Source: Dehalococcoidia bacterium | GTDB lineage: Bacteria; Chloroflexota; Dehalococcoidia; Lucifugimonadales; SHYT01 | NCBI GenBank assembly: GCA_009692665.1 | Contig: SHYT01000008.1 | Span: 14,764 to 78,763 of the forward strand | Reading direction: 5' to 3' | DNA: 64,000 nucleotides | Shown here: one piece after another, positions 12,538-58,916 of the stretch | How the letters are laid out: every line of letters starts with the position of its first letter | Position numbering within the stretch: the stretch's first letter is position 1 | The notes under the pieces: generated by a model | Told to the model about the DNA's origin: nothing | Database searches by the model: none | Seen by the model: the letters and a program-made list of their open reading frames with translations, nothing else | Made by a program: the position numbers and the translations under genes

Positions 12538-13299
12538 CTACTTGTTAGCAGCAGCCAGCCACGGCTTCACAGGCTCCAGATCAAACGGGTGGTCGAGCTG
12601 TACCAGAAAGAGCTGAACGCCTGCCTTAAGGTACTCATCCACTCTGGAGACGGCGCTGGGCGGAAGGTTGGTCGAATGCTCAATGTCAGCCGGGTTTCGG
12701 CCTACTTTTTGGCACCAATCATCAAGAAGCCCGCTCCTCCGAGCGTACTCTTCTGGCGTGCCGCCAAAGTTGCAAATGTCCGCATATTGCGCGACAAGCC
12801 GGAGAGTAACTTTTTCGCCGCCGCCGCCAATGAGAATGGGCAGCGGGCCTACCGGCGGGGGATTCAGTTTGGCAAGTCGGCTCTTAATGACCGGGAGAAC
12901 CTCTCGGAAGTATTTGAGGCGGCTGGCCGGCGTGCCGAATTCGAAGCCGAACTCCTGGTAATCACGCGCACTATTTCCGGCGCCAAGCCCTAAGTTAAAC
13001 CGGCCGCCGCTGAGATGGTCAATGGTGCGGGCCATGTCAGCGATAAGGCTTGGATTACGGTAGCCCACGGAGCTGACCATGGAGCCAATACGCGCGTGGC
13101 TTGTCTCACAAGCCATCGCCGCCATCAAGGACCAGCATTCAAAGTGGGAACCAGCCGGGTCACCGGAGAGGGGATAGAAATGGTCCCACGTTGTGATGCA
13201 GTCCACCCCAAGTTGATCAGCCCCCTTCCAGGCCGTGCGAAGCGCCTGGATGGTGGTGTGCTGCGGGCGTAAATGTACCCCAACTTTGAATCGAGCCAT
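12538..13299 (-). CDS. LLM-class oxidoreductase (probably F420-dependent)
   Basis: MARFKVGVHLRPQ..., WDHFYP, GYRNPSLIADMARTIDHLSGGRFNLGLGAG and ILIGGGGEKVTLRL resemble F420-dependent LLM families. ATG at 13299 chosen; the longest ORF starts at TTG 13398. Confidence 0.8.
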   Translation of the reverse strand: MARFKVGVHLRPQHTTIQALRTAWKGADQLGVDCITTWDHFYPLSGDPAGSHFECWSLMAAMACETSHARIGSMVSSVGYRNPSLIADMARTIDHLSGGRFNLGLGAGNSARDYQEFGFEFGTPASRLKYFREVLPVIKSRLAKLNPPPVGPLPILIGGGGEKVTLRLVAQYADICNFGGTPEEYARRSGLLDDWCQKVGRNPADIEHSTNLPPSAVSRVDEYLKAGVQLFLVQLDHPFDLEPVKPWLAAANK

Positions 13300-13440
13300 A
13301 CGTGGGCCATTGTAGCAGACCTTGTTGGCAATGAGACCGCTCGTGAAGCCGTCGCTCTGTGGCCCTAGAATCACGGTCTCGTTGTCATTGCTCTCCAAAT
13401 AGCTTTCCCGCTCAGGTGGTTTGGTGTCTATACCTGTTCT

Positions 13441-19481: not shown

Positions 19482-19752
19482 CAAGACTCCAAGTGGCGAA
19501 AGCACCCAGGTTGAGAAGATCAGTCGGCTGAATTATATGGCCCATAGCGTTCAAATGGGCCGGCTATCTTCCAGGAAACCGTGCCCCGTTCACCTGCACT
19601 GTAGTCACGCATGGTAGAATCGGGACATACTGTCAGGACGCAGTTCGGAGCGGCCATCCGCATCACATCTGGCGAGAGTAGTGGTAGCAACGAGCACCTC
19701 TGATACGACCTGTTACCACGGTTATCCTACATTGCAGAAGGAGGCATCCACA

Positions 19753-25588: not shown

Positions 25589-25760
25589 CCTTAATTCCTT
25601 TAAGAGGGGTCTGCGTAGACCTATCTGGAGAGCATATATGGTAGAGTAGACCACCTTTGTAAAATGGCGCCAGGCTTACAGGACGGGCCAGCAATAGGGT
25701 TGCTGAACGACAATGGCTAGGAAGCAGCGCTTAAGTTCATACGTGAAGGAGGCGGGTTCT

Positions 25761-27806: not shown

Positions 27807-29075
27807 ATGTTCATCATGCATTTCATGGAAGAAGCCTGGCAAGATGAGAAGTCTGGCTGGGTGGGCAGCAACACTAGCGACCTCCAGATCAGTAATAGCC
27901 TGTACGACCCCGTGCAGGCAAATAAGCTCTACCATCGGTACATAGACGAGAACCTCTTCTGTGAAGAGATGGGGTTTGATGGGCTCATGCTCAATGAGCA
28001 CCATAGCGCTCCTTTCTGTATGCAGGGCGTTACAAACGTCCAGCTCTCTATTCTGGCCCACGCCACTAAGAAGATTAAGCTAGTCCCGCTGGGAAACATC
28101 CTCCCGGCTTGGGATGACCCTATGTGGCTCGCCGAACAGCTAGCTATGATCGATGTGATTTCTGGCGGCCGCTTGGTCTCCGGCTGGGTGCGGGGTGGTG
28201 GCCGAGAACATGTGGTGCATAACACGCATCCGCCGTCCAACTGGGAGCGCTTCCAAGAGGCGCACGACCTCATCATCAAGGCCTGGACAACCCCAGGCCC
28301 CTTTCGCTGGGAGGGCAAGCATTACCAGTACCGCTATGTGAATCCTTGGGTTGTCCCTCTCCAGAAACCTCATCCTCCCATTTGGATTCCTGGGTCCGTG
28401 AGCCGCGCCACGGTCAATTGGGCGGCTAAGAACGGATACCCATACGTTATTCTTGGTGCAGAGCTGGAAGCGACAAAGAGCACATTTGCGTACTACCATC
28501 AGACGGCGGCGGAGTATGGGTTCAAAACGGGGACCCAGCACAACGGGGAACTCATCAAGGTTCACTGTGAGGAGACGGAAGAGAAGGCTGACGAGGCCGG
28601 ACGGAAGTTTCTGGGAGGGGTGAACAACCCTTTCCTCCTCGGAAACGAGGGAACTGTGCGCTCGAATATTACCGCGCTTCCTGGACTATCACCTAGGAGG
28701 GCCGAAGAAAGAATCGAAACTCGCGGCACTGCGCCGGTTGGTCGGGGTGGTGATGCCACTACTGGTAATTTGCGAGCCACATATGAAGAGCAATCCGCAA
28801 AATACCTGATCATCAGCGGCACACCCAAAACCGTTATTACCAGGGTGAAACACGTGATGGAGCAGACGAGGCCCGGAACACTCCTGCTCTGGGATGGTGA
28901 CGGGGCGATGACACACGAGGATCACATGCGCAGCCTGAAGCTCATGGGTAAGGAAGTGCTGCCTGCATTGCGTGACTATGCGAAAGAACTGGGCATTGTT
29001 GGCCCGTTTGATGTGGACCCGGTTGTTGGGATGACCCGCGGTTTGGTCTCAGGTATGGCAACTCCAACTCCATAA
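27807..29075 (+). CDS. Luciferase-like (LLM) flavin-dependent monooxygenase, subfamily A copy 2
   Basis: Co-linear with 9048-10307 and identical at most positions by eye. Same LNEHHS and IDVISGGRLVSGWVRG motifs. Confidence 0.85.
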   Translation: MFIMHFMEEAWQDEKSGWVGSNTSDLQISNSLYDPVQANKLYHRYIDENLFCEEMGFDGLMLNEHHSAPFCMQGVTNVQLSILAHATKKIKLVPLGNILPAWDDPMWLAEQLAMIDVISGGRLVSGWVRGGGREHVVHNTHPPSNWERFQEAHDLIIKAWTTPGPFRWEGKHYQYRYVNPWVVPLQKPHPPIWIPGSVSRATVNWAAKNGYPYVILGAELEATKSTFAYYHQTAAEYGFKTGTQHNGELIKVHCEETEEKADEAGRKFLGGVNNPFLLGNEGTVRSNITALPGLSPRRAEERIETRGTAPVGRGGDATTGNLRATYEEQSAKYLIISGTPKTVITRVKHVMEQTRPGTLLLWDGDGAMTHEDHMRSLKLMGKEVLPALRDYAKELGIVGPFDVDPVVGMTRGLVSGMATPTP

Positions 29076-31149: not shown

Positions 31150-32391
31150 CTAGTTGGCTGTGGCGAACTGGCTGAGTACGAGAGAACTGCTTTGGGTTGG
31201 TGACCCCCAGGCGCTGCAAAACCCAACATCATGCTTCTTTACTTGGCGGCATCCAGCTTTGCGATCATACGTGTGGATGCCTTCCTCCCAGTTCGGACAC
31301 GCATCATCAGCCCGTCCGCGGAGTTGGCGGGTCATTTCAATAACCATTTGTATCCCGTGACTGTAGCCTTCGGACAGGTGCGACCCGGAAGTGTTCACAG
31401 GAAGGTCACCGTCGATGAGACCACGCCCTTCCTGATACCAAAAGCCAGCCTCACCCGGCTTCACAAAGCCATATCCTTCCATTTGGAGTAGGGGAGTGAT
31501 AGTAAACGCGTCGTAGAAAGACGCGACGTTGATATCGCTGCGCGTGACGCCGGACATCCCAAACGCGCGGTTGCGTCCCCAGTTGCTGCCATGCCAGTAA
31601 ATCGGTGTGTGCAGCCGGCCTGCGTTGTAGGAGGGGCTTTCCGACATAGTGCGGGCGGTGCCCCCCAATACGAACACTGGTGGGTGCCGCAGGTCATACG
31701 AATCTTCTCTTCGCATGAGCACCATGGCACAAGAGACGTCCCGTTCCAAGCAGCAGTCGTAAAGACGGAAGGGCTTGGAAACCCAGCGAGCATTGTAATA
31801 GTCTTCCAACGTCAGCGGCTGTTTATAGAAGACCGCCTTCGGGTTGAGATTGGCGTGGTAGCGGTGGGTTAGCGCGACGGCCGCAAGCTGGCGGGTGCTC
31901 ACGCCGTAGTCGTGCATGTACCGCATAGCAGCCATGCCAAAATTTTGCGCCGGGGTGGTCACCCCCACCATTGGGCCTTGGCCGTCAGAAGTGACTACGG
32001 TGTTTGGCTGAGGGCCGGAGAGCGCTTGCCCTCCCATGCGCCGTCCGGTGCGCCCGCGCATAGACCGAAAAATGACTATTGCGCGGCAATAGCCTCCGGC
32101 AAGGAGACCCGCTGCGTGGGCGACGAGCGCTTCGCTGCTGGAACCACCGCCCATGATATCCACGGCGTAGTTAAGCCGCATACCGAGAGACTGTGCCATA
32201 TCATTTGAGCTATGCGAGTCTCCGGTCTGATAGCTGGTCATACCATCAATGTCGCTGAGCCTGAGGCCTGCGTCAGCCACCGCCTTCTTGATAGCCTCCA
32301 ATCCGAGCGAAAGTGTCGTCCGCTTCGCGTCCCGATAGAACTCCGTTTGCCCTACGCCTACAATGGCGGCTTTCCCTGTTAGCGCTCCCAC
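31150..32391 (-). CDS. SCP-x/thiolase-like protein apparently lacking the nucleophilic Cys (aldolase/lyase-like?)
   Basis: AAIVGVGQTEF N-terminus and NTSGSHLSEG...QLRG C-terminus are SCPx-thiolase-like. IMGGGSSSEAL aligns to the [11 protein letters not shown] nucleophile segment (Cys->Gly) and EGYSHG to KGHPLG (His->Tyr). GTG 32391 follows GAGGAGG; the longest ORF starts at 32628. Confidence 0.75.
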   Translation of the reverse strand: MGALTGKAAIVGVGQTEFYRDAKRTTLSLGLEAIKKAVADAGLRLSDIDGMTSYQTGDSHSSNDMAQSLGMRLNYAVDIMGGGSSSEALVAHAAGLLAGGYCRAIVIFRSMRGRTGRRMGGQALSGPQPNTVVTSDGQGPMVGVTTPAQNFGMAAMRYMHDYGVSTRQLAAVALTHRYHANLNPKAVFYKQPLTLEDYYNARWVSKPFRLYDCCLERDVSCAMVLMRREDSYDLRHPPVFVLGGTARTMSESPSYNAGRLHTPIYWHGSNWGRNRAFGMSGVTRSDINVASFYDAFTITPLLQMEGYGFVKPGEAGFWYQEGRGLIDGDLPVNTSGSHLSEGYSHGIQMVIEMTRQLRGRADDACPNWEEGIHTYDRKAGCRQVKKHDVGFCSAWGSPTQSSSLVLSQFATAN

Positions 32392-32684
32392 CGATATCCT
32401 CCTCAGAACACACAACACACACAACTTGACATCTATCCGGCGTTCTGTGTGGCACACTTTAACTGAGAATCTACCGGTTGGCAACAAACCGTGTCCTCCA
32501 AGCCTGACTGCATTAGTTTCTTCCCATTGCCCATCAACTGGGCTATGGCTGTGGTTTTGGGCATCAAAAAGACGCTGGTTCAAATACATGGAGCACATGG
32601 TGCTATAGTGGGTGCGCTGCAGGAGCACCCTGGCAGAAGCGTATTTCTCGTGGGAAGCTCGCTAGGAGTCAGGAGGAGGCGATT

Positions 32685-36828: not shown

Positions 36829-36925
36829 ATCCAGTGAAACTAGAATGGCTTATTATACGAAGAAATTGCGACGACGCCGTTACACATCGCTACTTTGCCG
36901 GGTGCTTTGATTGGAGTGTGAAGCT

Positions 36926-38014
36926 ATGGACTGGTTAAGTGAACCCTGCCGGCAAAACATACCGGGGCTTGACTACGATTTGGAAGCCATGCGAAAACAG
37001 TTCCTTGGACTGGAAACGAAGCCAGTTCAAGGACGGTATCCAGTCGAATACGATCCGATTCGTCGCCACTGCCATATGACCGGTGACATGAATCCTCTTT
37101 TTCTTGACCCAACCTATGGTGCTAAGAGTAAATATGGGGCTGTTATCGTCCCGCCGCCGCTAGTTGCATATTTCGGGGTTCCAGGTGTGTGGCCTCCTAG
37201 ATCGCTGGAAGAACCACGACTTCCGGCAATACCTATGCCGGGTAATCGGTCCATCGCAATGATGGTGGAGACTGAGTGGCATAAGCCCGTGAAAGTGGGT
37301 GACCGGCTCAGTAGCATGAGCCGCTACGCCGATCTCTACTTCCTTTCTATCCGACTGGACTGGTGCGCCGTTTGGGTAACCACACAGAATATCCTTTCTA
37401 ACCAGCACGGTGATGCCGTCGCCACTGTTATGCAGATGTCACTGCGCCATCGCGGCGTTGACCAAGTACCCGACGGCCAGAAGGGAGCCCCAAATGTGGC
37501 GCAGGCGCCGGTACCTCCAATGCCGCAGCCCATTGGACAAACTAGGCCCCTGGTCACCCCAAAGCCCCAAGCGGAGCAAATCTACTGGGAAGACGTTAAA
37601 GAAGGCGATTTTCTTCCCGTTCTCGAATATCCCATCACCGAGACGCGTATTGTTGAGCAGGTAAGTGGGTCCCAGGACTTTTATGCTGTCCACCATGATC
37701 GTGCATTTGCCAGGGCGGCAGGACACAGCGATATCTTTGTGAACAATGGGTTCATGCGGGGCTGCCTAGCTCGCGTACTCACCGACTGGATAGGAGATGA
37801 AGGCTGGCTGCGCAAGCTCCGAGTAGAAATGCGCCGCATGAATGGTCCTGGAGACCTATTGATTTGCACCGGAAAAGTAGTTCGCAAGTACGAAGACGGC
37901 GCCGAAAAAATCGTTGAATGCGAAGTCTGGGCTGAGAACGCGCGTGTAGGGGTTACCACTCCGTGCCGTGCGTGGGTGGCATTGCCAAGCCGTTCGGGCC
38001 AATCGCGCCATTAG
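36926..38014 (+). CDS. MaoC-like double hot-dog enoyl-CoA hydratase (N- and C-terminal hot-dog domains fused)
   Basis: The N-terminal half carries GDMNPLFLDP. The C-terminal half carries FYAVHHDRAFARAAGH (D-x-N-x-H-type hydratase motif region). ATG 36926; the longest ORF starts at TTG 36911. Confidence 0.8.
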   Translation: MDWLSEPCRQNIPGLDYDLEAMRKQFLGLETKPVQGRYPVEYDPIRRHCHMTGDMNPLFLDPTYGAKSKYGAVIVPPPLVAYFGVPGVWPPRSLEEPRLPAIPMPGNRSIAMMVETEWHKPVKVGDRLSSMSRYADLYFLSIRLDWCAVWVTTQNILSNQHGDAVATVMQMSLRHRGVDQVPDGQKGAPNVAQAPVPPMPQPIGQTRPLVTPKPQAEQIYWEDVKEGDFLPVLEYPITETRIVEQVSGSQDFYAVHHDRAFARAAGHSDIFVNNGFMRGCLARVLTDWIGDEGWLRKLRVEMRRMNGPGDLLICTGKVVRKYEDGAEKIVECEVWAENARVGVTTPCRAWVALPSRSGQSRH

Positions 38015-40507: not shown

Positions 40508-41530
40508 ATGAAGTTCGGCGCGTTTGGTCTATCAGGCAGCTACCAGCAGGTCATTCAGGAATCCCAGGAGGCAGAGCGCTTAGGGTTTGATGGTGTTTTC
40601 TTTGGGCAACACCACCAGACGACGGAGGCTGCTGCACGTCAGGCAGTGTTCCAGAACCGCATTGTTGGAAATTTGGTGCTCTGCACAGCAGTGGCCGCCC
40701 GAACGGAGCGGGTACACATTGGGACTGCTATTCACCTTCTTCCCCTAAGTCATCCCGTACAAGTAGCAGAGGATACCGCGGCCATTGATATTGTTTCAGG
40801 CGGCCGGTTTATCCTTGGCGTGGGCATTGGTTACCGGGAATACGACTTTGATACGTTTGGCATACCAATAGCCCAGCGTGTGTCTCGGTTTGAGGAAGGG
40901 CTGGAGATTGTGCGCCGCGCGTGGACGGAGGACTCATTCTCCTTCGTGGGCAAACGGTTCACCTTGCGAAACGTCTCGGTGCCAAAGCCAATTCAGAAGC
41001 CGCATCCTCCTCTTTGGGTAGGGCCATGGTCTATGGAAGGAGCCAAGCGCGCAGCCAGGCATGGGGCGGGCTTCATTTCTGACCCGATTCACGATACACC
41101 GTCCCTTCAGCGCATGATCACCCTGTACAAGGATCTCTCCAAGGCGCGTGGCATGAAGCCATACGTAGTCATCATGCGGGAAATGATGCTTGCTGAGAGT
41201 CAGGAAAAAGCCAAGGAACTATACATGAACTCCGTTCTGGGGACGTATCGCAACTACTGGACGCACCACGGCATCAATCCAGAGTTGGAGCCATGGGTCA
41301 AAGAAATTAAGTCACAGGAAGAAGTCACCTGGGAACGTTTGACGAAGAACGACCGTGTGTTGTACGGTTCCCCAAGCGACATTGTTAAGCAAATCAAGAA
41401 GCTCAACGACGACCTCGGAGGCATTGACTACTTAATGCCAGTGTTTATCCACCCGCCTCAGCAGGGGCATGAGAAGGCAATGGAAGCGATGAAGTTATTC
41501 GCTGAAAAGGTCATACCCAATTTCCGATAG
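40508..41530 (+). CDS. Luciferase-like (LLM) flavin-dependent oxidoreductase, subfamily B copy 1
   Basis: LGFDGVFFGQHH, IDIVSGGRFILGVGIGY and KPHPPLWVG. Paralog of 44998-46053. Confidence 0.85.
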   Translation: MKFGAFGLSGSYQQVIQESQEAERLGFDGVFFGQHHQTTEAAARQAVFQNRIVGNLVLCTAVAARTERVHIGTAIHLLPLSHPVQVAEDTAAIDIVSGGRFILGVGIGYREYDFDTFGIPIAQRVSRFEEGLEIVRRAWTEDSFSFVGKRFTLRNVSVPKPIQKPHPPLWVGPWSMEGAKRAARHGAGFISDPIHDTPSLQRMITLYKDLSKARGMKPYVVIMREMMLAESQEKAKELYMNSVLGTYRNYWTHHGINPELEPWVKEIKSQEEVTWERLTKNDRVLYGSPSDIVKQIKKLNDDLGGIDYLMPVFIHPPQQGHEKAMEAMKLFAEKVIPNFR

Positions 41531-42764: not shown

Positions 42765-42914
42765 AGTGGGTAGGACGCACATATCCGGACAGCTTTTAGC
42801 GGAAACGCCGGAAAGCTTTGTAGGACATGCGCGGATAGACCGGACTTGGCGAGGAGTTGGCAGCATCAGTCCACAGAGCGTCGAAAACGCATGACGAGAG
42901 GAAAGGGAGAAATA

Positions 42915-44807
42915 ATGGTTTCACGCCTACGACGACCAGGAACTGCCCTGTTCTTAGGTGTCATCCTAATGTTGGTTTTAGCTCTAGCTTGCGCTGGAGG
43001 AAAGACGGCTGCTCCGGCAGCCCCAGCTCCAGCACCGTCTACAAGCCCGGTGGCCGCTTCAGCACCGGCAACGACTCCTGCCAAAACGGTGGGGGAGACT
43101 ACCGGTACAGTTCCAGTTCTGGCTGCGGAACTCAAGCTCGACCCGCGTTCGGATGAGCCTGGTTCCACCATGCCGCAGGAAGCCCTGAAATATCACCACA
43201 CCAAGATGCCACTATGGACGAAGGCCAAGTACGGCGGTGAGCGTGTTGGGACCGGGGGGACCTACAACATTCTGGGCCAGAACCCCTTCACCGTCTTTAG
43301 CAAGCGTAACAATTTCATGGGCATGTTCATCATGATCGACGCTGGGACGTGCAGCTCTATCGGGCGCACAGACTTTTCTGTCTGTAATGGCGTCCGCAAC
43401 AACAACCTTACAGGCGTCTTAGTGCCCGGTATCATTGAGAAATGGGACCGGCCAGATTCCCTAACTGTGGTATTTACCATCCGTCAAGGGGTTCTTTGGC
43501 CCAACCTGCCTCCTATGAACCTCCGTCCCAACCGCAATGTAACCGTGGAGGACGTGAAGTGGTACTTTGAGACGCAGAAGAAAGAGGGCGTCTACCGGGA
43601 CACCTTCACGCTGGTGGACACCTTTGAGGTCGTCGACCAGAGGACATTGCGGCTCAAGTTCTCACAGCCCCACGCTACATTCATCACCATGATGGCGAAC
43701 TACGGCCTGGGCATCATTCCCCGCGAGTGCTACGAGGACAAGGATGGATGCCTTAGTAAGCGGCTCATTTCCCCCGGCCCGTTTATCTTTGACGAAGCAA
43801 GCTACCAGCCGCGGAGTGTGGCGATTTACAAGAAGAACCCCGAGTTTTGGCTGAAGGGTCTGCCTTATCTTGATCAGCTCCGGACCATCGCTGTCTTGGA
43901 CACGAATGCAGCGCGGGCGGCGTACATCACGGGGCAGTTCGACCAGTTCCAGAACTTTTCGCCTCGAGAACGTGACGCGCTGTTGAAGCAGGTGCCAAAT
44001 TCCCAGATCCAGACGCAGTATTGCTCCTGTGGGTCGGCGCATTTCCTGTTGAGATTAGACAAGGCGCCGTACAACGACGTTCGCGTGCGCCGCGCGTTGT
44101 CCATGGGCATGGACCGGCCAAAAGCCTGGCTCGCGGCCAACGACGGCTATAACGCCATGGGTATGCCGATGGCGTTTGACTTCCTGGGGCTCGAGATGTT
44201 CGTCAGTCTGAAGACGGCAGGTCCCACCAACCAGTACAACCCGACGGAGGCAAAGCGGCTCCTTACTGAAGCCGGGTATGCCAACGGGCTTACCGTTCCT
44301 ATTATCATGGCCACTACCTGGCCCACTTCGTGGAGCAGTGCAGACCTAGTTACGTCCATCCAGGAAGACTGGAAGAAAATCGGCGTAACCCTGGACTTAA
44401 AGGTCGTCGACCCTCTACAAGATGCGGGCATGCGGCGCGACAAGAACTGGGACGGCGGGCTGTTCAGCCAGTGCTGGGACTGCAGCGCCACGGACCCGGA
44501 CAGCTACTTCTTGATGGCGTACTCCAAGAGCCCGCGTAACCTGATGGGCCTCAATGACCCGATCATTGACGACATTTACCTCAAGGCCCGCTCGGAGCTC
44601 GACCCCAAGAAGCGTGAGCAACTCTACTGGGACTTCACGAACCGCATGTATGACCAGCAGTATGGCATCCACTTTGGCAATCCAAGTGGCTTCGAGTTCT
44701 TTGCACCGTGGCTTAGAAACGCCGCGAGCCATGTGTATGCGTATGGTGGCGTCACTAACTTCAGTTCCTGGGTCATGTGGGTTGATCCTGACTTGATGAA
44801 GAAATAA
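42915..44807 (+). CDS. Lipoprotein, ABC-type family-5 solute-binding protein (SBP3)
   Basis: ATG 42915 follows AAGGGAG. Lipobox LALAC, Ala/Pro-rich tether, and a body co-linear with and highly similar to SBP1. Confidence 0.85.
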   Translation: MVSRLRRPGTALFLGVILMLVLALACAGGKTAAPAAPAPAPSTSPVAASAPATTPAKTVGETTGTVPVLAAELKLDPRSDEPGSTMPQEALKYHHTKMPLWTKAKYGGERVGTGGTYNILGQNPFTVFSKRNNFMGMFIMIDAGTCSSIGRTDFSVCNGVRNNNLTGVLVPGIIEKWDRPDSLTVVFTIRQGVLWPNLPPMNLRPNRNVTVEDVKWYFETQKKEGVYRDTFTLVDTFEVVDQRTLRLKFSQPHATFITMMANYGLGIIPRECYEDKDGCLSKRLISPGPFIFDEASYQPRSVAIYKKNPEFWLKGLPYLDQLRTIAVLDTNAARAAYITGQFDQFQNFSPRERDALLKQVPNSQIQTQYCSCGSAHFLLRLDKAPYNDVRVRRALSMGMDRPKAWLAANDGYNAMGMPMAFDFLGLEMFVSLKTAGPTNQYNPTEAKRLLTEAGYANGLTVPIIMATTWPTSWSSADLVTSIQEDWKKIGVTLDLKVVDPLQDAGMRRDKNWDGGLFSQCWDCSATDPDSYFLMAYSKSPRNLMGLNDPIIDDIYLKARSELDPKKREQLYWDFTNRMYDQQYGIHFGNPSGFEFFAPWLRNAASHVYAYGGVTNFSSWVMWVDPDLMKK

Positions 44808-44997: not shown

Positions 44998-46053
44998 ATG
45001 AAATTTGCACCTTTCGGCGTTGGCGGCGGCGCATTTGAGGCTGCGGCAGAGACTGCGCAATTGGTTGAGTCAATCGGATATGATGGTTTATTCTTTGGAT
45101 TCCATCACTCGCCGGACTTGCAAGCGGCGGTGGGGATTAAGAACGCGCCTCCACTTGGCGGCGGTGGCAGTGACCGGGGCGGTTCCCAGTGGCCGCGCAT
45201 CGCGGCCCTGGCTGCGCGGACCAAAACGCTCACGTTTGGCACAGGGATATTCCTCCTGCCTTTTGCGCATCCGCTCAACGTCGCGGAAGACGTCGCGACT
45301 ATTGACCACATTTCTAAAGGGCGCATCATTCTGGGCGTGGGACCCGGCTACAACAAAGCCGACTTTGATATGTTCGGCATGCCCGTCTCGAATCGGGTCT
45401 CTTTGTTTGAGGAAGGCTTAGAAGTAATCAGGCGGGCATGGACGGAAGACAAGTTTAATTTTGTCGGGAAGCGATATACCATTCGCAATGCCCGCGTTCT
45501 TCCCAAGCCGTATCAGAAGCCGCACCCACCAATTTGGGTGGGCCCGTGGAGCATGGAAGGGTTCAAGCGCGCTGCACGGCAGGGGGATGGAGTCATCACC
45601 GATCCGATGCAGGGCAAGGCGGCGCTCAAGGCATTTATCGCTGCGTACCGTGAACTGTGTCTCGCCAGAGGCAAGAAGCCGGTCGTGGCATTAATGCGCG
45701 AGATGTTGCTCGCATCTAGCAAAGAGGAAGCGCTGCAGCTCTACGGCAAGTCCATTATCGGAACCATGCAGTACTATGCCTGGGGCGGCGTCCTGAACAA
45801 AGAATATGAGCCATGGCTCAAGGACGTGAAGTCGTACGACCAGATCACGTTCCAGATGGTCAACGCCGACAATCGCCTTCTCTGGGGCTCTCCAGACGAC
45901 ATAATTGGCCAGATCCACCAGATGAATGAAGAGTTCGGTGGTATCGATTACCTCATTCCCGCATTCGTAGGCACCGGTGGCCCGGATGCCGCGAAGCACC
46001 AGCAACAAACATTGCGTCTTTTCGGCGAAAAGGTTATGCCCAAGTTCAAGTAG
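44998..46053 (+). CDS. Luciferase-like (LLM) flavin-dependent oxidoreustase, subfamily B copy 2
   Basis: IGYDGLFFGFHH, IDHISKGRIILGVGPGY and KPHPPIWVGPWSMEG. Carries a Gly-rich insertion (PPLGGGGSDRGGS) relative to copy 1. Confidence 0.85.
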   Translation: MKFAPFGVGGGAFEAAAETAQLVESIGYDGLFFGFHHSPDLQAAVGIKNAPPLGGGGSDRGGSQWPRIAALAARTKTLTFGTGIFLLPFAHPLNVAEDVATIDHISKGRIILGVGPGYNKADFDMFGMPVSNRVSLFEEGLEVIRRAWTEDKFNFVGKRYTIRNARVLPKPYQKPHPPIWVGPWSMEGFKRAARQGDGVITDPMQGKAALKAFIAAYRELCLARGKKPVVALMREMLLASSKEEALQLYGKSIIGTMQYYAWGGVLNKEYEPWLKDVKSYDQITFQMVNADNRLLWGSPDDIIGQIHQMNEEFGGIDYLIPAFVGTGGPDAAKHQQQTLRLFGEKVMPKFK

Positions 46054-46098: not shown

Positions 46099-46199
46099 AG
46101 CTAGAACTTGTAATGTGGGTTCAAGAGAACTGGGGGCAAAGGTCGCCCTGAGGCGTCGCCTGAGTACTCCCCCGTGCATTCCATTCAAGGAAGGGTACT

Positions 46200-47387
46200 A
46201 TGGATCTGACTTATCCGCCTGAAGCAGAGGCGTTCCGCCAAGAGGTGATAGCCTGGCTACAGGCCAACTTGCCGTCAGGATGGGGCACCCCTCAATTCAA
46301 GCTGCCTGGCGACCCTAAGCAGCGGCGCGCATGGCATGTTGACTGGCACAGGAAGATGCATGCGGCTGGCTACGTCGGCCTGACGTGGCCCAAAGAATAC
46401 GGCGGCCAAGGCGCCGATCCTGTGATGAGTATGATGCTCAATGAGGAATTGACTCGGTTCGAGGCTCCGCAAGGGGCCAACGCGCTTGGCACGCGTATCG
46501 TTGGGCCAACCATCATCCAGTTTGGCAATGAAGAGCAGAAACGGGCCCACCTGTCCAAGATTCTGAGTGGCGAGGAAATGTGGTGTTTAGGAATGTCTGA
46601 GCCCGGCGCAGGCTCAGACCTCGCCTCCCTGCAGACCCGTGCCGTTGAAGAAGGTGATTTCTTTGTCGTCAACGGCCAAAAAGTGTGGACGTCTTCTGCC
46701 CACCTGGCAAATTACATTTACCTGTTGGTGCGGACGGATCCCACCGCTGAAAAACATCGGGGCATCAGCGTCCTGCTTGTTGACATGAAGACCCCAGGCA
46801 TCGTCGTGCGGCCGCTCAAGCAAATTACTGGCGAATCCGAATTCAATGAGGTCTTCCTCCAGGACGTTCGTGTCCCGCGCAGCAATCTCCTGGGCGAAAA
46901 GAACCAGGGGTGGCGCGTGATTATGGGTCAGTTAGGGTATGAGCGCTCCGGTGGTTCGCGTGGCATGAACTGCCAGCGGGCTTTAGAGGATTTGGTGCGG
47001 TTGGCAAGGAACACATATCGCAATGGCAAGCCAGCCAGTGAGGACCCAATCATCCGCAGAAAACTTGCTCAGCTTGCCATCGAGGTCAATATCGTTCGAC
47101 TAACTGATTACAAGGAGATGACCATCCAACTACAGGGAGGGCGCCCTGGCCCTGAGACATCCTTCGGCAAGCTGTTTTGGAGTGAGCTGAACCAGCGGCT
47201 CTCATCGGTAGGGGTGCAAATCTTGGGCTTAGAGGGTACTCTTAGCAAGCAATCCTCTGACGTAGTCAAGAACGGCGAATATCTTTACGCTTTTCTCCGT
47301 GCATATGGGAACACTATTGAAATGGGCACTTCGGAGATTCAGCGGAACATTATCGGGGAACGAGTATTAGGGCTGCCCCGCGGTTAA
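46200..47387 (+). CDS. Acyl-CoA dehydrogenase (FadE-type; C-terminus IEMGTSEIQRNIIGERVLGLP)
   Basis: ACAD N, middle and C domains are recognisable (GLTWPKEYGGQG, MSEPGAGSDLASL, GTSEIQRNII). Confidence 0.85.
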   Translation: MDLTYPPEAEAFRQEVIAWLQANLPSGWGTPQFKLPGDPKQRRAWHVDWHRKMHAAGYVGLTWPKEYGGQGADPVMSMMLNEELTRFEAPQGANALGTRIVGPTIIQFGNEEQKRAHLSKILSGEEMWCLGMSEPGAGSDLASLQTRAVEEGDFFVVNGQKVWTSSAHLANYIYLLVRTDPTAEKHRGISVLLVDMKTPGIVVRPLKQITGESEFNEVFLQDVRVPRSNLLGEKNQGWRVIMGQLGYERSGGSRGMNCQRALEDLVRLARNTYRNGKPASEDPIIRRKLAQLAIEVNIVRLTDYKEMTIQLQGGRPGPETSFGKLFWSELNQRLSSVGVQILGLEGTLSKQSSDVVKNGEYLYAFLRAYGNTIEMGTSEIQRNIIGERVLGLPRG

Positions 47388-47418
47388 GGCGCACTCTTTC
47401 TCAGGAAGGCCGACTACC

Positions 47419-48576
47419 ATGTTTTTTGACCTAACGGACGAACAGAAAGCTATTAAGAAAGCGGCAAGGGACATGCTGGAGATCGAATGTCCCAGGTCCT
47501 ACGTCCGCGCCATGATGGACGATGCCCGTGGGTATCAGCCGGAGCTTTGGAAGAAGATGGCGGATCTGGGCTGGATGGGCCTGGCTCTACCGGAACGCTA
47601 CGGTGGAGCAGGGCTGGAGTTCTTGTCGCTCACTGGTCTCATCGAAGAAATGGGGCGATTCTTGTTGCCAGGGCCTTTTGTCTCCACGGTTGTTGGTGGT
47701 GGACTAACACTGGCGGCGGCGGGCAGCCCTGTACAACAGGAGAGCATTCTGCCCAAGCTCGTCAGAGGAGACCTGCTGATGACGCTGGCCGTAGGCACAG
47801 ATCACGGCCGGTTGGATGCGGGGGGGGTACAGAATTCTGCAGTCCGGCAGGGAGACGGGTTTGTCTTGAATGGCATCGTTCGTTTGGTGCCGGACGCACA
47901 GACAGCAGACATAATTCTTCTTGCAGCCCGCACCAGCCAACAACATGAGGAAGGATTGACATTATTCCTTGTGGATGCGAAGGCCCCTGGACTGTCAGTG
48001 CATCCGCAGTACACTACCGATGGGCGCAAAGTCGCCAACTTGGAATTCTCTAGCGTTCGAGTGCCTTCCACCGCAGTGGTTGGGCGGGTAGATGGTGCCT
48101 GGCCGATAATAGCGGCAGCCCAGCGCCGGCTCACTCTATCTTTATGCGCGGAGGCTGTTGGGGGCGCAGGTATGGCTATGGAAATAAGTGTGGAATATGC
48201 CAAAACCCGAGTGGCATTCGGACGTCCCATTGGCATGTTCCAGGCGATTAAGCACAAGTGCGCCAACATGTTAGTGCAGGTTGAATCAGGACGGTTTCTA
48301 CTGTATTATGCGGCGTGGTTGCTGCAAGAAGGTGCTTCGGAGGCACCAGAGGCGGTGGCTGTGGCGAAGGCTTGGTGTGGCGATTCGTACACCAAAGTTG
48401 CTTCAGATGGTATCCAGGTGCATGGGGGGATTGGCATGACATGGGAACATGACATGCACCTGTTTCTCAAGCGCGCAAAGGTAATCGAATTGTCGTCGGG
48501 GGATTCTGATTACCACGCTGAGCACATCGCTAAGGAGCTCGAGCGCCGTGCAACGGCAATATCGAGTGCGAGATAG
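47419..48576 (+). CDS. Acyl-CoA dehydrogenase-fold protein (divergent; lacks the YEGT catalytic-base motif)
   Basis: ACAD-like throughout (ALPERYGGAG, FQAIKHKCANM), but the C-terminus reads VIELSSGDSDYHAEHIA instead of I-Y-E-G-T-S-E-I. Starts 31 nt after the preceding ACAD. Confidence 0.8.
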   Translation: MFFDLTDEQKAIKKAARDMLEIECPRSYVRAMMDDARGYQPELWKKMADLGWMGLALPERYGGAGLEFLSLTGLIEEMGRFLLPGPFVSTVVGGGLTLAAAGSPVQQESILPKLVRGDLLMTLAVGTDHGRLDAGGVQNSAVRQGDGFVLNGIVRLVPDAQTADIILLAARTSQQHEEGLTLFLVDAKAPGLSVHPQYTTDGRKVANLEFSSVRVPSTAVVGRVDGAWPIIAAAQRRLTLSLCAEAVGGAGMAMEISVEYAKTRVAFGRPIGMFQAIKHKCANMLVQVESGRFLLYYAAWLLQEGASEAPEAVAVAKAWCGDSYTKVASDGIQVHGGIGMTWEHDMHLFLKRAKVIELSSGDSDYHAEHIAKELERRATAISSAR

Positions 48577-48721
48577 GCTCAAGAGTAATCGGCTGTGGTC
48601 ATATAGGGTGTCTGGCATAATGGCCAGAGGGTGCTTTTACCGGTAATGAGCTTCCTTTTCCAGTGGGGAAGCGGGAAACAAGCGGCAGCAAAGATAACTG
48701 AGATGTGTCCAGGAGGGTTGC

Positions 48722-49603
48722 GTGCAGGCATTTGAGTATGTAAGCGCAAAGTCGGTAGGGGAGGCGGTTGGCGTCCTGTCTCAGCATGGTGAAGGGGCTC
48801 GCCTTATGGCGGGTGGGACAGATGTATTGGTACAGCTCCGGGCAGGGCGGCGCCCTCAGGTCAAGGTGTTGGTCGATGTCAAAGGTATCGGCGAGCTCAA
48901 CGAGCTTTCCTACAATGACCGTCAGGGCCTTATCATCGGGGCTGCCGTGCCTTGCTATCGCATCTACGAAGATCCCACGGTCATTAAGAGGTATCCAGGC
49001 ATCGTGGACTCCGCCTCAATTATTGGAAGTGTTCAAATCCAGGGCCGCGCATCGTTGGGCGGCAATATCTGCAATGCTACGCCCAGTGCAGATGGCATTC
49101 CCCCGCTCATTGCGTTGGGCGCGGTGTGTATCATAGCTGGCCCAAACAATAGTCGGCGGGAACTGCCTTTGGAGCAATTGTTTGCTGGACCTGGCCGCAC
49201 GACACTGCAGAACGGAGAGATGCTTATCTCCGTCAGGGTGCCGCCGCCGCCAGCCAACTCTGGAGCGCAATATCTGCGCTTTACACCTCGCAACGAAATG
49301 GATATCGCTGTTGCTGGAGTTGGTGCAGCTATCACTTTGAATGCCGCAAAGAACACGTTCGTATCTGGGCGCGTGGTTCTGGCTGCCGTTGCGCCTATAC
49401 CGCTGTTGGTGCCTGCCGCGGGCCAGGCGTTGGCTGGCAAGCCGGTGAACGATGAGACCATTGGCAAAGCGGCGGAAGCTGCGGTAGCAGCAGCGGTTCC
49501 GATTACTGACATGCGTGGCACTATTGAATACCGCAAGCACCTGGTAGGGGTACTGACCCGCCGGGCTCTCCAAGGTGCAATTCAAAGGGCGAAGGGGGTA
49601 TAG
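48722..49603 (+). CDS. Molybdenum hydroxylase FAD-binding (medium, CoxM/XdhB-like) subunit
   Basis: FEYVSAKSVGEAVGVL...LMAGGTDVLVQLR and GGNICNATPSADG match the FAD_binding_5 pattern. GTG start after AGGAGGG. Confidence 0.85.
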   Translation: MQAFEYVSAKSVGEAVGVLSQHGEGARLMAGGTDVLVQLRAGRRPQVKVLVDVKGIGELNELSYNDRQGLIIGAAVPCYRIYEDPTVIKRYPGIVDSASIIGSVQIQGRASLGGNICNATPSADGIPPLIALGAVCIIAGPNNSRRELPLEQLFAGPGRTTLQNGEMLISVRVPPPPANSGAQYLRFTPRNEMDIAVAGVGAAITLNAAKNTFVSGRVVLAAVAPIPLLVPAAGQALAGKPVNDETIGKAAEAAVAAAVPITDMRGTIEYRKHLVGVLTRRALQGAIQRAKGV

Positions 49604-49607
49604 TCAC

Positions 49608-50093
49608 GTGGCTGATAAAGTTCGAGTGCAATCAACTATCAATGAGGAAACCGTTGATTTTCTGTGCGAGCCTCGCCAGAGCTTGCTGGAGACGCTCCGG
49701 GATGTCTTGGGCATGACCGGTACCAAGGAAGGCTGCAACGACGGTAACTGCGGTGCTTGCACCGTCATTATTGATGGCAGAATGGTAACCTCATGCTTGG
49801 TGCTGGGGGTTGAAGCAAGCGGCAAGAAGATTGAGACCATTGAAGGCGTGTCTCAGCCGGATCATTTGCACCCCATTCAGCAGGCGTTCTTGGAAGGCGC
49901 AGCTCTGCAATGCGGCATTTGCACACCTGGCTTTATCATGGCGTCAAAGGCGCTGTTGCAGGTTGAGCCAAAGCCGTCGGAAGAGCGTATTCGCCTGTGG
50001 CTGGCTGGTAACCTCTGCCGCTGCACGGGCTACGACAAAATTGTCCGCTCTGTACAGAGCGCCGCCACTAAAATGAGTGGAGAGCGTAGGTAG
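49608..50093 (+). CDS. Molybdenum hydroxylase [2Fe-2S] (small, CoxS/XdhC-like) subunit
   Basis: GCNDGNCGACTV and CGICTPGF...CRCTGY cysteine clusters. GTG 49608 follows AAGGGGG, 4 nt after the medium-subunit stop. Confidence 0.9.
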   Translation: MADKVRVQSTINEETVDFLCEPRQSLLETLRDVLGMTGTKEGCNDGNCGACTVIIDGRMVTSCLVLGVEASGKKIETIEGVSQPDHLHPIQQAFLEGAALQCGICTPGFIMASKALLQVEPKPSEERIRLWLAGNLCRCTGYDKIVRSVQSAATKMSGERR

Positions 50094-50171
50094 GTTCTAA
50101 CTTGTGTTGTGGCAAACCGGAAACGAACCACGGAACAAAGGTTCACGCTGAGCCTTAGCAAGAAGTGGGTC

Positions 50172-50459
50172 ATGGCAGATGTCTGGATTCCGCCCATCAT
50201 GCAGCAGTGGACAGGCGGAGCGAAGCGCGTCCAGGTGTCAGGTGCTAGTATTCGGCAGATTATTGACAATTTGGAGCGACTCTATCCAGGTATTGCCGAG
50301 CATTTATATGAGGTTGACGAGGACAGACTAATGCCCGGCCTCGCCGTGTTTGTGGACGGCGAGGCCGCTACTCTTGGTCTCATGGAATCCGTCAAAGAAA
50401 ATGGTGAAGTCCACTTTCTTCCCGCTATTGGTGGCGGGGCAACCGCCCACAAGCGCTAA
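50172..50459 (+). CDS. MoaD/ThiS-family ubiquitin-like sulfur-carrier protein with C-terminal extension past Gly-Gly
   Basis: MADVWIPPIMQQWTGGAKRVQVSG...GEVHFLPAIGGG follows the ThiS/MoaD beta-grasp pattern but continues ATAHKR before the stop. The start is uncertain; the longest ORF starts at 50109. Confidence 0.65.
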   Translation: MADVWIPPIMQQWTGGAKRVQVSGASIRQIIDNLERLYPGIAEHLYEVDEDRLMPGLAVFVDGEAATLGLMESVKENGEVHFLPAIGGGATAHKR

Positions 50460-56338: not shown

Positions 56339-57376
56339 TTAAGGGGTTGCAGCGAGTTCTTTGCGCAGGATTGGGGCGACGCGGGTGCCGAGCAGCTCAA
56401 TAGCTTGCATTAGCTTGGGATGAGGCAAAGAGGCGGCGTTCATTTGAAACGTGATGCGGGAAATGCCACCCAGCGCTGCACTATGTCGCAGGATTTTCGC
56501 CGCCACCACTTCAGCGGTGCCGATCAGCAGGGCGCCGTCCGGCCTTAGTTGAGCGTCGAACTGGGCGCGGGTGACTGGCGACCACCCACGCTCCTTCCCG
56601 ATAGATGTGAAGGCGCGGGCGTACCCCGGAAAGAAGTCTTCTGCGGCCTCCTGCGCCGTCGCGGCCACATAGCCCAGGGCGTGGACGCCGACCTTCAATT
56701 GATCGGGTGAGAACCCGGCCAGCTTGCCAGCCTCCCTGTAGAGATCGACAAGCGGCCGGAAGCGCCGCGTTTCGCCGCCGATGATGGCGACCATCAGTGG
56801 AAGGCCGAGCTCGCCGGCGCGCAGGAATGACTGTGGGCTCCCGCCAACACCCAGCCAAATGGGCAAGGAGTCCTGCAATGGCCTGGGGTAGACGCCTTGT
56901 CCGGTCAGCGCGGCCCGATGTTTGCTGGACCAGTGAACATGCTCGTTCTCGCGGATATTGAGCAGCAGATCAAGCTTATCCGCAAAGAGAGAGTCGTAGT
57001 CTTCCAGCTTAAAGCCAAACAGGGGGAATGAGTCGGTGAACGACCCGCGGCCCACCACCATCTCCGCCCGGCCCTGAGAAAGCAGGTCAAGGGTGGCGAA
57101 GTTCTGAAAGACCCGTACGGGATCGGCTGAACTCAGGACGGTTACGGCGCTGGTCAGACGGATGCGGTGGGTGCGCGCCGCCGCAGCTCCAAGAATAACC
57201 GTAGGAGCCGAATCGAGGAACTCCTTGCGATGGTGTTCACCGACGCCAAATACGTCCAGCCCGACCTGGTCTGCATATTCGATTTGTTCCACCAAGTTAC
57301 GCAGACGGTCGGACGGACTCACCGCCAAACCCTGGCCCTCGTAGGCCGCTGCGAAGCTATCAACACCAATTTGCAT
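56339..57376 (-). CDS. Luciferase-like (LLM) flavin-dependent oxidoreductase
   Basis: MQIGVDSF..., GLDVFGVGEHH and DLLSQGRAEMVVGRGSF. ATG 57376 follows GGGAGAAGG; the longest ORF starts at 57418. Confidence 0.85.
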   Translation of the reverse strand: MQIGVDSFAAAYEGQGLAVSPSDRLRNLVEQIEYADQVGLDVFGVGEHHRKEFLDSAPTVILGAAAARTHRIRLTSAVTVLSSADPVRVFQNFATLDLLSQGRAEMVVGRGSFTDSFPLFGFKLEDYDSLFADKLDLLLNIRENEHVHWSSKHRAALTGQGVYPRPLQDSLPIWLGVGGSPQSFLRAGELGLPLMVAIIGGETRRFRPLVDLYREAGKLAGFSPDQLKVGVHALGYVAATAQEAAEDFFPGYARAFTSIGKERGWSPVTRAQFDAQLRPDGALLIGTAEVVAAKILRHSAALGGISRITFQMNAASLPHPKLMQAIELLGTRVAPILRKELAATP

Positions 57377-57770
57377 GGGCCTTCTCCCTTGGAAAGATAT
57401 TGTTTGGGAAGTGGTCAACTTCTTGTGCCTGGCACCATTATTTGTGACACACGTACAAAAGAGAAGTACGCACGTTCATGTGCAGCAGGCACACTCGTTC
57501 CTGTCCCCACGTAATCCGCTCCTGCTTCCGCTTTGCTTGGAGACCCCTTCCTAAAACCTAAGAAATGGTAGCGAACGGGCCTTGCCGTTGCTAGTTGCTT
57601 TCTTTGGATCAGCTTGCCCCTGCGCGGGTACCGCATTCCTTTTAGGGAGCAGATCATAACGCTTCGGCATGGGGGTTGGGTGGGCCGGCCGGAACTGTGG
57701 CACCGCAGCCGTGGGTTACGCGGTACAATTGCACGCGTAATAAAGCGGCGCGGCAGAGATTGGGGGCGCA

Positions 57771-58916
57771 ATGCCTGACATCATGTTGACCGAAGAAGAG
57801 TTGATGCTCAAAAGCGCGATCCGCGACTTTGCGGAACGGGAAGTCGCGCCGAGGGCGATGGAGATTGACCAGGAAGAGAGGTTCTCGTTTGAGAATTTCC
57901 ACGCCATGGGGAAGCTGGGACTGTTTGGGATGACGCTGGACCCCAAGTACGGCGGCAGCGCGGGCGGCATCAAGCCGGTGGTTGTGGTGGCGGAGGAGCT
58001 GGCGAGGGTATGCGCGTCCACGTCGAACGCGTTTGTGGTGCAGACCGGGCTGGCGGGCTATCCCATGAATCAATTTGGCAATGAGAAGCAGAAAGCACGC
58101 TGGCTGCCGGGGCTGATATCGGGCGAGAAGGTGGGCGCGTACTGCCTGACGGAGCCGGGAAACGGCAGCGACGCGGCGGCGGCATCCACGATTGCCAAGA
58201 AGGTCAGCGGTGGGTACGTGCTGAACGGGAGCAAGACGTTCATCACGCACGGGACCATCGGCGACGTGCTCATTGTATTTGCCACCATGGACATGGCGCT
58301 AAAGCACCGGGGCTTTGTGGCGCTGGTGCTTGAGAAGGGCATGAAGGGGCTGACAACGCAGAAGATTACCGGCAAGATGGGCATCCGCTCGTCCGACACA
58401 GGCACGATGTTTTTTGACAACGTGGAAGTGCCGGAGGAGAACCGGCTGGGCGAGGAAGGCCAGGGCTTCCGGATTGCGATGCAGACGCTGGACAACAGCC
58501 GCGTGGGCATTGCGGCGCAGGCGCTGGGCATTGCGCAGGGGTCGCTGGACGAGGCGCTTAAGTACGCCAAGCAGCGGCGCGCGTTTGGGCAGGCCATTGC
58601 CGACTTCCAGGCCATCCAGTTCTACCTGGCGGACATGGCGATGCGCGTGGAGGCGTCCCGGCTGTTGACCTACCAGGCGGCGGCACTCAAGGACGCAGGC
58701 CAGCCGTACGTGAAGCAGGCGTCCATGGCGAAGGCATATGCATCCGAGGCGGCAGTGTTCTGCGCGGACCGGGCGGTGCAAATTTTCGGCGGGTACGGAT
58801 ACATTCGCGAGTCTAAGGTGGAGCGGTTTTACCGGGATGCGCGCATCACGCCGATTTATGAGGGGACAAGCGAGATCCAGCGGATTGTGATTGCGCGGCA
58901 CCTGTTGCAGGAGTAG
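57771..58916 (+). CDS. Acyl-CoA dehydrogenase (canonical short/medium-chain type)
   Basis: CLTEPGNGSDAAA and the C-terminal PIYEGTSEIQRIVIARHLL, which carries the catalytic Glu motif. Confidence 0.9.
   Translation: MPDIMLTEEELMLKSAIRDFAEREVAPRAMEIDQEERFSFENFHAMGKLGLFGMTLDPKYGGSAGGIKPVVVVAEELARVCASTSNAFVVQTGLAGYPMNQFGNEKQKARWLPGLISGEKVGAYCLTEPGNGSDAAAASTIAKKVSGGYVLNGSKTFITHGTIGDVLIVFATMDMALKHRGFVALVLEKGMKGLTTQKITGKMGIRSSDTGTMFFDNVEVPEENRLGEEGQGFRIAMQTLDNSRVGIAAQALGIAQGSLDEALKYAKQRRAFGQAIADFQAIQFYLADMAMRVEASRLLTYQAAALKDAGQPYVKQASMAKAYASEAAVFCADRAVQIFGGYGYIRESKVERFYRDARITPIYEGTSEIQRIVIARHLLQE

Follow-up and report, generated by a model that had tools for sequence, protein, structure and literature searches.

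A tandem acyl-CoA dehydrogenase gene pair in a Dehalococcoidia bacterium with the residue patterns of alpha2beta2-class heteromeric enzymes

Introduction

The alpha2beta2 architecture of acyl-coenzyme A (CoA) dehydrogenases (ACADs) has been known in principle since 2013, and most of what is characterised of it comes from steroid-degrading Actinobacteria and Proteobacteria. Here we describe two adjacent ACAD genes (genes 1 and 2) in a metagenome-assembled genome (MAG) of a Dehalococcoidia bacterium (GenBank assembly GCA_009692665.1), which very probably form a bicistronic unit for the alpha and beta subunits of a heteromeric ACAD of this class. They are in a 64,000-nucleotide stretch of contig SHYT01000008.1 (positions 14,764 to 78,763 of the forward strand), which we refer to as the window and whose own positions are used throughout. 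Both products (MSP78928.1 and MSP78929.1) are publicly annotated merely as "acyl-CoA dehydrogenase", and a literature search within a limited set of papers turned up no account of heteromeric ACADs from Dehalococcoidia or SAR202.

In the alpha2beta2 class the catalytic Glu is on one subunit only, and one flavin adenine dinucleotide (FAD) is bound per heterodimer, at the interface, with two per tetramer. Alpha holds the isoalloxazine and the substrate, and beta the ADP-ribose part of FAD (PMC8399759, PMC11153573). The homotetrameric ACADs (MCAD, SCAD, IVD and LCAD) have the same three-domain fold, but unlike genes 1 and 2 each of their subunits has both a base and a complete cis and trans FAD site. 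IVD and LCAD, as well as the alpha2beta2 subunit ChsE4, carry the base on helix G, and Pro132 of LCAD, equated with ChsE4 Pro89, both unwinds helix E and gives bulky substrates a larger cavity (PMC11153573). The closest described systems are Mycobacterium tuberculosis ChsE4-ChsE5 (FadE26-FadE27, 4X28) of the actinobacterial cholesterol regulon, Thermomonospora curvata Tcur3481-Tcur3483 (6WY8/6WY9), the substrates of which are bile-acid side chains (PMC8399759), and Rhodopseudomonas palustris PimC/PimD. The title of a paper cited in PMC8399759 points to a 'key' glycine of steroid ACADs, the residue changed in 6WY9 (G363A). PimCD-like adjacent pairs of beta-proteobacteria are needed for growth on C7-C12 dicarboxylates, and their heterotetrameric state is only suggested (PMC12543098).

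Organization of the gene pair

Genes 1 and 2 are on the same strand, and each is preceded by an AGGAAGG ribosome-binding site (RBS). The features of the locus, together with a third ACAD gene of the window, are as follows.

46188..46194, + strand: AGGAAGG RBS of gene 1, 5 nt before the ATG (sequence read)
46200..47387, + strand: gene 1, alpha-type ACAD subunit, MSP78928.1 (open reading frame (ORF), 395 aa, ATG start)
47388..47418, + strand: intergenic spacer of 31 nt, with AGGAAGG (RBS of gene 2) at 47403-47409
47419..48576, + strand: gene 2, beta-type ACAD subunit, MSP78929.1 (ORF, 385 aa, ATG start)
48611..48638, + strand: terminator-like hairpin and T-run, first base 35 nt past the gene 2 stop (consensus match only)
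57771-58916: third ACAD of the window, canonical, reading PIYEGTSEIQR

PF02771, PF02770 and PF00441 are all matched by gene 1 and by gene 2, and both are thus full three-domain ACADs (Pfam). The C-terminal peptide of gene 1 is ...TIEMGTSEIQRNIIGERVLGLPRG, and in the J-K loop region gene 2 reads ...KVIELSSGDSDYHAEHIA... Promoter and terminator scans of the 6-kb region were no better than those of shuffled sequence, save for the one hairpin after gene 2, which is a possible candidate for the end of a bicistronic unit; terminator-like sites (10 in the region, compared to 5.6 +/- 2.3 in shuffles) are not significantly enriched.

An apparent absence of gene 1 from the protein database was rejected as an artefact. 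A 54-aa fragment (P0242) stands for its whole 90% cluster and hides gene 1 from its own clustered homology search; searches seeded with gene 1 return nothing nearer than 57% identity, though a 69% relative (L002) exists.

Residue pattern of gene 1

Residues were compared by aligning the three ACADs of the window with rat SCAD, ChsE4, Tcur3483, Tcur3481 and 58 homologs (MAFFT). The numbering was verified by a count of residues, in which E368 of SCAD and E247 of ChsE4 both landed on the expected letters. Conservation was counted over 70 alpha-type sequences for the alpha family and 110 beta-like sequences for the beta family. The informative positions of gene 1 are these.

46467..46469, + strand: Pro90 codon, helix E, corresponding to ChsE4 Pro89 (column mapping)
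46596..46619, + strand: S133-E-P-G-A-G-S-D140, middle-domain FAD motif, intact (alignment)
46941..46946, + strand: Glu248-Arg249, helix G, the predicted catalytic base corresponding to ChsE4 Glu247 (alignment)
47319..47324, + strand: Glu374-Met375 in 'TIEMGT' (column mapping)

The S, E, P, G138, S and D positions of the middle-domain motif are 100% conserved in the alpha-type sequences, as is W163 of the flavin contact W163-T-S. Glu248 and Arg249 are also both invariant (70/70), and the predicted catalytic base of gene 1 is the helix-G Glu248, at the position used by ChsE4, IVD and LCAD. The canonical catalytic-Glu column of the J-K loop is occupied by Met375 and is never Glu in the alpha family (G30, A17, T14, M7; n=70). 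The Glu of 'IEMGT' is one residue earlier, in the Tyr column, which is also the column of the 'key glycine' G363 of Tcur3483. We considered Glu374 as a shifted J-K-loop base, but its column varies across the family (E34, A22, G6, M6; n=70) whereas E248 is invariant, and as a feature of the family it was rejected. The trans FAD motif R-x-x-F-G...Q is lost in gene 1, where the region reads NTYRNGKPASEDP, and the counterpart of Q-x-x-G-G-x-G is Q-I-L-G-L-E-G. Just ahead of the last helices, gene 1, ChsE4 and Tcur3483 share an insertion of 8 residues. Pro90 is invariant in a 30-sequence gene 1 alignment.

This pattern is similar to that of ChsE4-ChsE5, which are also encoded by adjacent genes, with a helix-G Glu, SEPGAG(S/T)D and W-T-S in the alpha subunit. 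ChsE4 likewise lacks the J-K-loop Glu, has lost R-x-x-F-G, and has both the 8-residue insertion and the helix-E proline (P89 = P90).

Residue pattern of gene 2

Gene 2 has a different set of departures and retentions.

47791..47817, + strand: V125-G-T-D-H-G-R-L-D133, degenerate form of x-(S/T)-E-P-x-x-G-S-D (alignment)
47881..47895, + strand: R155-L-V-P-D159, replacing the canonical W/F-I-T-N/H flavin contact (alignment)
48130..48132, + strand: Leu238 at the helix-G catalytic column (alignment)
48208..48243, + strand: R264-V-A-F-G-R-P-I-G-M-F-Q275, trans FAD-binding motif kept (canonical R-x-x-F-G...Q) (alignment)
48496..48498, + strand: Ser360 at the canonical J-K-loop catalytic-Glu column (alignment)

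At the flavin contact the beta-family consensus is LFVPD, with Pro at the Thr column in 88 of the 110 beta-like sequences. None of the 110 has Glu or Asp at either catalytic column, the residues being A80, G10, S9, L5 and C3 in helix G, and F89, L13, Y4, S1 and W1 in the J-K loop, where Ser360 of gene 2 aligns with rat SCAD E368 and with E364 of the third window ACAD. The trans side is well conserved: R264, F267, P270, I271, G272, F274 and Q275 are invariant in a 30-sequence gene 2 alignment, and Q333-V-H-G-G-I-G is kept. In the larger beta-like set F267 is present in 107/110, Q333 in 108/110, and Q275, G336 and G337 in 110/110. Like ChsE5, gene 2 is a beta-type subunit without a base. Glu357 of gene 2 (in 'VIELSS'), which does not vary among the 30 sequences of the beta alignment, was evaluated as an alternative base; it was rejected as a base because the same column is Glu in the catalytically normal SCAD and in Clostridioides difficile butyryl-CoA dehydrogenase ('ITEIYEGT').

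We note that in 20 of the 110 beta-like proteins the residue immediately preceding the helix-G catalytic column is a Glu (e.g. LNEAAV, KHEAEV). Carriers include L004-L008, L010-L013, L016, L018 and P0054, and those inspected are from Dehalococcoidales and other Chloroflexi MAGs. Gene 2 is without this Glu and reads QRRLTL.

The third window ACAD has TEPGNGSD, F-I-T-H, R-R-A-F-G..Q and Q-I-F-G-G-Y-G, with Ser243 in the helix-G column and the base in Y-E364-G-T, and thus has the canonical homotetramer set. Gene 1 departs from this set in lacking the trans motif, and gene 2 in lacking both the base and the cis motifs. A first-pass annotation of the window had pointed to tandem ACAD genes 31 nt apart, and the measured spacer and the three Pfam ACAD domains in each gene bear this out; the peptides that it quoted from genes 1 and 2 and from the third ACAD are exact. 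It had also reported that a single gene of the pair lacks the catalytic-base motif. This is correct for gene 2, with Ser360 and Leu238 in the two catalytic columns, but gene 1 is also non-canonical in the J-K loop, with Met375 there and its predicted base at E248. Scoring of the FAD-contact and Glu positions did not find complete sets in both proteins, and the suggestion of a possible alpha2-beta2 heteromer is supported by the reciprocal loss of base and FAD motifs and by the alpha- and beta-chain structures nearest to the two products (see below).

Relationship to known families and solved structures

Among the NCBIfam models, gene 1 scores best with pimC_large (279.8 bits, cut-off 623.85; residues 2-392 aligned to 1-395 of the 395-residue model) and gene 2 with pimD_small (215.2 bits, cut-off 652.7). 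The IpdE2 model (NF050027) matches gene 2 in two stretches with 156.3 bits, compared to a cut-off of 450. The best sequence matches in the Protein Data Bank are Tcur3483 (3e-59) and ChsE4 (1e-57) for gene 1, and Bacillus subtilis MmgC (6e-47), Tcur3481 (2e-42) and ChsE5 (7e-37) for gene 2. Identity to the solved subunits is modest, at 33% to ChsE4 and 36% to Tcur3483 for gene 1, and 33% to Tcur3481 for gene 2.

AlphaFold2 (AF2) monomer models built from 30-sequence alignments have pLDDT confidence values of 83.4 (gene 1) and 87.9 (gene 2). A Foldseek search with the gene 1 model gives alpha chains as the top four matches (6wy9_A, 6wy8_B, 4x28_A and 4x28_B), and with the gene 2 model the top match is the beta chain 6wy8_C, with a target-normalised TM of 0.93. 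The lowest-confidence segments of the models are FAD-contact loops, at residues 138-142 of gene 1 (46611-46625) and 334-342 of gene 2 (48418-48444), and they carry the G-S-D of the alpha motif and the H-G-G-I-G of the beta motif. This would fit, weakly, with loops that are ordered only in the holo-heteromer.

Linkage and co-divergence

When reference genomes were scanned with the beta alignment, at least 600 contig stretches matched and at least 582 of them, in many uncultured phyla, were confirmed as containing relatives of gene 2; the best 80 were kept as loci. Eight of these are truncated, leaving 72 with enough upstream sequence. An alpha-type gene is 4-80 nt upstream on the same strand in 35 of the 72 (after start trimming) and approximately 2.3 kb upstream in a further four. 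Sampling from the other side, two of four alpha-type homologs (P0203 and P0140) are paired. Linkage is therefore common in the wider family and not universal. The distance matrices of alpha and beta subunits for 37 pairs are strongly correlated (Mantel r = 0.944, equalled in 0/2000 permutations). In the closest relative the same 395-aa and 385-aa pair is present (alpha 69% and beta 75% identical) between opposite-strand dapB and pnp genes. The pair is thus kept with other neighbours than in the window, which indicates a self-contained unit.

Genes elsewhere in the window

Overall, the window is a catabolic region, and its other informative genes are listed here.

3717-4907, 6231-7439 and 7512-8822: three family-III CoA-transferases, close together, ~38 kb from the pair
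9048-10307, 12538-13398, 27807-29075, 40508-41530, 44998-46053 and 56339-57418: six luciferase-like (LLM) oxidoreductases
10382-12262, 25713-27698 and 42846-44807: three family-5 solute-binding proteins
19681-22146 and 23264-25588: Mo-hydroxylase large subunits, 821 and 774 aa
30641-31219, - strand: ChsH2-type Zn-ribbon/OB-fold (DUF35) protein, adjoining the SCP-x-type thiolase
31150-32628, - strand: SCP-x-type thiolase (Thiolase_C_1)
36911-38014, + strand: double-hotdog MaoC/FAS1-DH hydratase, 367 aa, ~5 kb from the thiolase pair
48722-49603, 49575-50093 and 50109-50459: CoxM-like (FAD), CoxS-like (2Fe-2S) and ThiS/MoaD-like genes, directly downstream of the ACAD pair

Paralog expansion is strong (CoA-transferases, LLM oxidoreductases and solute-binding proteins), and there are four MFS transporters. 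The window also holds three crotonase-type hydratases, short-chain dehydrogenases/reductases (SDRs), MFS and ABC uptake components, and an acetyl-CoA hydrolase/transferase family protein. Immediately upstream of the pair is an LLM oxidoreductase that scores just above the cut-off of the TIGR03619 F420-dependent subfamily (169.8, cut-off 166.9). No molybdopterin large subunit is beside the CoxM/CoxS-like genes, and the two Mo-hydroxylase large subunits are 23-29 kb upstream. DUF35, thiolase and MaoC proteins of these types partner alpha2beta2 ACADs in steroid side-chain cleavage; here the genes are dispersed and outside any operon with the ACAD pair. The genes flanking the pair are not kept alongside it in the closest relative, and an attempt to deduce the substrate from gene context failed, since the neighbours differ between the two.

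Discussion

The alpha2beta2 class can be recognised by adjacent genes in one operon, a catalytic Glu on one subunit only, a division of FAD contacts in which alpha has the isoalloxazine side and beta the ADP-ribose side, and nearest solved chains that are the matching alpha2beta2 chains. Genes 1 and 2 are on the same strand, 31 nt apart, with an RBS before each. Gene 1 has E248 as its predicted base, and gene 2 has Leu238 and Ser360 in the two catalytic columns. The division of FAD contacts is seen at the level of sequence motifs, and the correspondence to solved chains is clear for gene 1 and weaker for gene 2. At the sequence level the pair thus has every feature of the class, and it falls outside the PimCD, IpdE2 and steroid side-chain subgroups. 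The same division of labour between chains would apply as in Tcur3481-Tcur3483, with the differences that Tcur3481 has middle-domain deletions, unlike gene 2, and that Tcur3483 has G363 where gene 1 has Glu374. Adjacency, co-inheritance and reciprocal residue loss in the window pair all point to a heteromer.

In the proposed enzyme, alpha would supply the isoalloxazine pocket (S133-E-P-G-A-G-S-D140 and W163-T-S), the acyl-CoA pocket and the base Glu248, and beta would be catalytically dead and hold no flavin ring of its own. The C-terminal domain of beta (R264..F267-G-R-P-I..Q275 and Q333-V-H-G-G-I-G) is predicted to complete the ADP-ribose side of the FAD held in alpha. As alpha has lost the trans residues, the reciprocal site and both alpha-alpha and beta-beta dimers would lack a complete FAD site. 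Each tetramer is expected to have two FAD and two active sites, and to catalyse the alpha,beta-dehydrogenation of an acyl-CoA.

Several observations weigh against this interpretation. We infer heteromer formation, and likewise stoichiometry and activity, from complementary residue loss. The fold match of gene 2 is poorly set apart from ordinary ACADs, with 6wy8_C at 1e-25, the next match at 4e-25 and 4x28_C in 25th place. The window ORFs scanned include no electron transfer flavoprotein (ETF) genes, and comparison of the window with the closest relative gives no conserved pathway partner in the neighbourhood. Finally, there are relatives of both subunit types without a partner nearby. There is no ACAD within 6 kb in 33 of the 72 beta-like loci, P0133 and P0155, two of the four alpha-type homologs sampled, are without another ACAD in the surrounding 6 kb, and there is no alpha within 10 kb of the beta-like P0054, which is from a complete genome of Dehalococcoidales. 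Such singletons suggest subunit pairing in trans or an alternative assembly, and the obligate association that the first-pass annotation had named for Mycobacterium pairs is not established here, since close relatives of both subunit types are also unlinked in other genomes. The unlinked genes are located as follows.

L009, L015, L017, L020, L022-L025, L029, L030, L034, L035, L042, L044-L046, L048 and L050: unlinked beta-like loci, gene usually near 6001-7140
L051, L053, L055, L058, L060, L063, L066, L068, L070-L073, L075, L076 and L083: further unlinked beta-like loci, gene usually near 6001-7140
L084 (CP070800.1), 10001-11140: P0054, followed by an enoyl-CoA hydratase (ECH), an SDR and two family-III CoA-transferases
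L085/L086, 6001-7194, and L089/L090, 6001-7185: unlinked alpha-type P0133 and P0155

The 33 unlinked beta-like genes all have the full beta ('dead') signature and are mainly from Binatia, as well as from Myxococcales, Entotheonella/Tectomicrobia, Actinomycetota, Dormibacterota and deltaproteobacterial MAGs. Many of their loci have the order SDR, thiolase-like protein with a C-terminal Zn-ribbon/OB domain, SCP-x-type thiolase, beta-like ACAD, and one or two small hot-dog proteins; these neighbours were assigned by reading the sequences and not by Pfam.

The existence of these singletons, and the recurrence of the 33 beta-like genes without a nearby ACAD in SDR/thiolase/hot-dog loci, raise the question of whether genes 1 and 2 are simply two independent proteins encoded side by side, gene 1 forming a homotetramer or having some other partner and gene 2 being non-catalytic with a separate role, perhaps one shared by its unlinked relatives in thiolase/hydratase operons. 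We regard this as quite unlikely, because each gene lacks exactly what the other keeps, the two are tightly spaced, co-inherited and have moved jointly into different neighbourhoods, and an alpha-alpha dimer would be without the R-x-x-F-G...Q contacts that are conserved in the compared canonical ACADs. Another explanation, a narrower form of the alpha2beta2 heteromer reading, is that the pair is a PimCD ortholog, and thus a two-subunit pimeloyl-CoA or medium-chain dicarboxylyl-CoA dehydrogenase. The two best NCBIfam models are the two subunits of that one enzyme, the 395-residue PimC model corresponds in length to the 395-aa gene 1, the large-then-small gene order is shared, and PimCD-like pairs serve growth on C7-C12 dicarboxylates in beta-proteobacteria (PMC12543098). 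The window also has three family-III CoA-transferases and the acetyl-CoA hydrolase/transferase family protein. Enzymes of these two types often act on dicarboxylates. However, the CoA-transferases are ~38 kb away, the scores are under half of the equivalog cut-offs (45% and 33%; TIGR03204, TIGR03203), and there is no pimFABCDE-like context, the pair having LLM, CoxM/CoxS-like and ThiS-like neighbours and the closest relative being flanked by dapB and pnp. PimCD orthology is therefore improbable, and dicarboxylyl-CoA is a live alternative substrate.

Less probable again, and in our view very unlikely indeed, is that the pair is an ortholog of the steroid alpha2beta2 enzymes (ChsE4-ChsE5, ChsE1-ChsE2 or IpdE1-IpdE2) and acts on the CoA ester of a steroid side chain or ring fragment. 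ChsE4-ChsE5 and Tcur3481-Tcur3483 are among the nearest solved structures, the helix-E proline is conserved, and the thiolase, its OB-fold partner and the MaoC hydratase of the window resemble Ltp2, ChsH2-DUF35 and ChsH1-ChsH2. But these hydratase and thiolase genes are 8-16 kb away, with the thiolase and OB-fold partner on the opposite strand, and the pair comes from a Dehalococcoidia MAG. The window shows no steroid genes, and no Kst-, Ksh- or Hsa-type sterane-ring Pfam family was recognised among its scanned ORFs. The sequences themselves are also divergent, given the identities of just 33-36% (alpha) and 33% (beta to Tcur3481) and the IpdE2 score far below cut-off. ChsE4 has G-G-G where gene 1 has E-M-G, its second proline, P91, is Gly92 in gene 1, and the key-glycine column, occupied in gene 1 by Glu374, has Gly in just 6/70 relatives. 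The earlier comparison with the FadE26-27 and FadE28-29 type thus holds for the class and not for orthology, with the identity values and Glu374 at the key-glycine column both arguing against the latter.

For the alpha2beta2 heteromer that we favour, the conserved helix-E Pro90 suggests an enlarged cavity, and the substrate class is likely to be a bulky, branched, alicyclic or long dicarboxylic acyl-CoA. The idea of a bulky or branched acyl-CoA, which had been raised in the first-pass annotation, draws support from the invariance of Pro90 in the ChsE4 Pro89 column. A steroid side chain is argued against by the absence of the steroid-type glycine and, in the window scan, of steroid catabolic genes.

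The window pair extends a known theme and adds no new principle. If it encodes one two-subunit enzyme instead of two, the apparent ACAD count at this locus is halved, and either gene expressed alone would probably yield an inactive or flavin-poor protein. The more intriguing by-product is that many uncultured phyla have alpha and beta genes that are not linked. A speculative and rather improbable explanation is that alpha- and beta-type half-ACADs, partly unlinked, constitute a mix-and-match system in which one beta serves several alphas in trans, or serves thiolase/hydratase assemblies; lineages that may have such a system are Dehalococcoidia, Binatia, Methylomirabilota, Tectomicrobia and other uncultured groups. 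If true, this would provide combinatorial dehydrogenases for bulky non-steroid acyl-CoAs, such as the alicyclic or dicarboxylic products of refractory organic matter. More generally, the distribution of beta relatives across many uncultured phyla suggests that the half-ACAD design serves for bulky acyl-CoAs in general, and not specifically for steroids.

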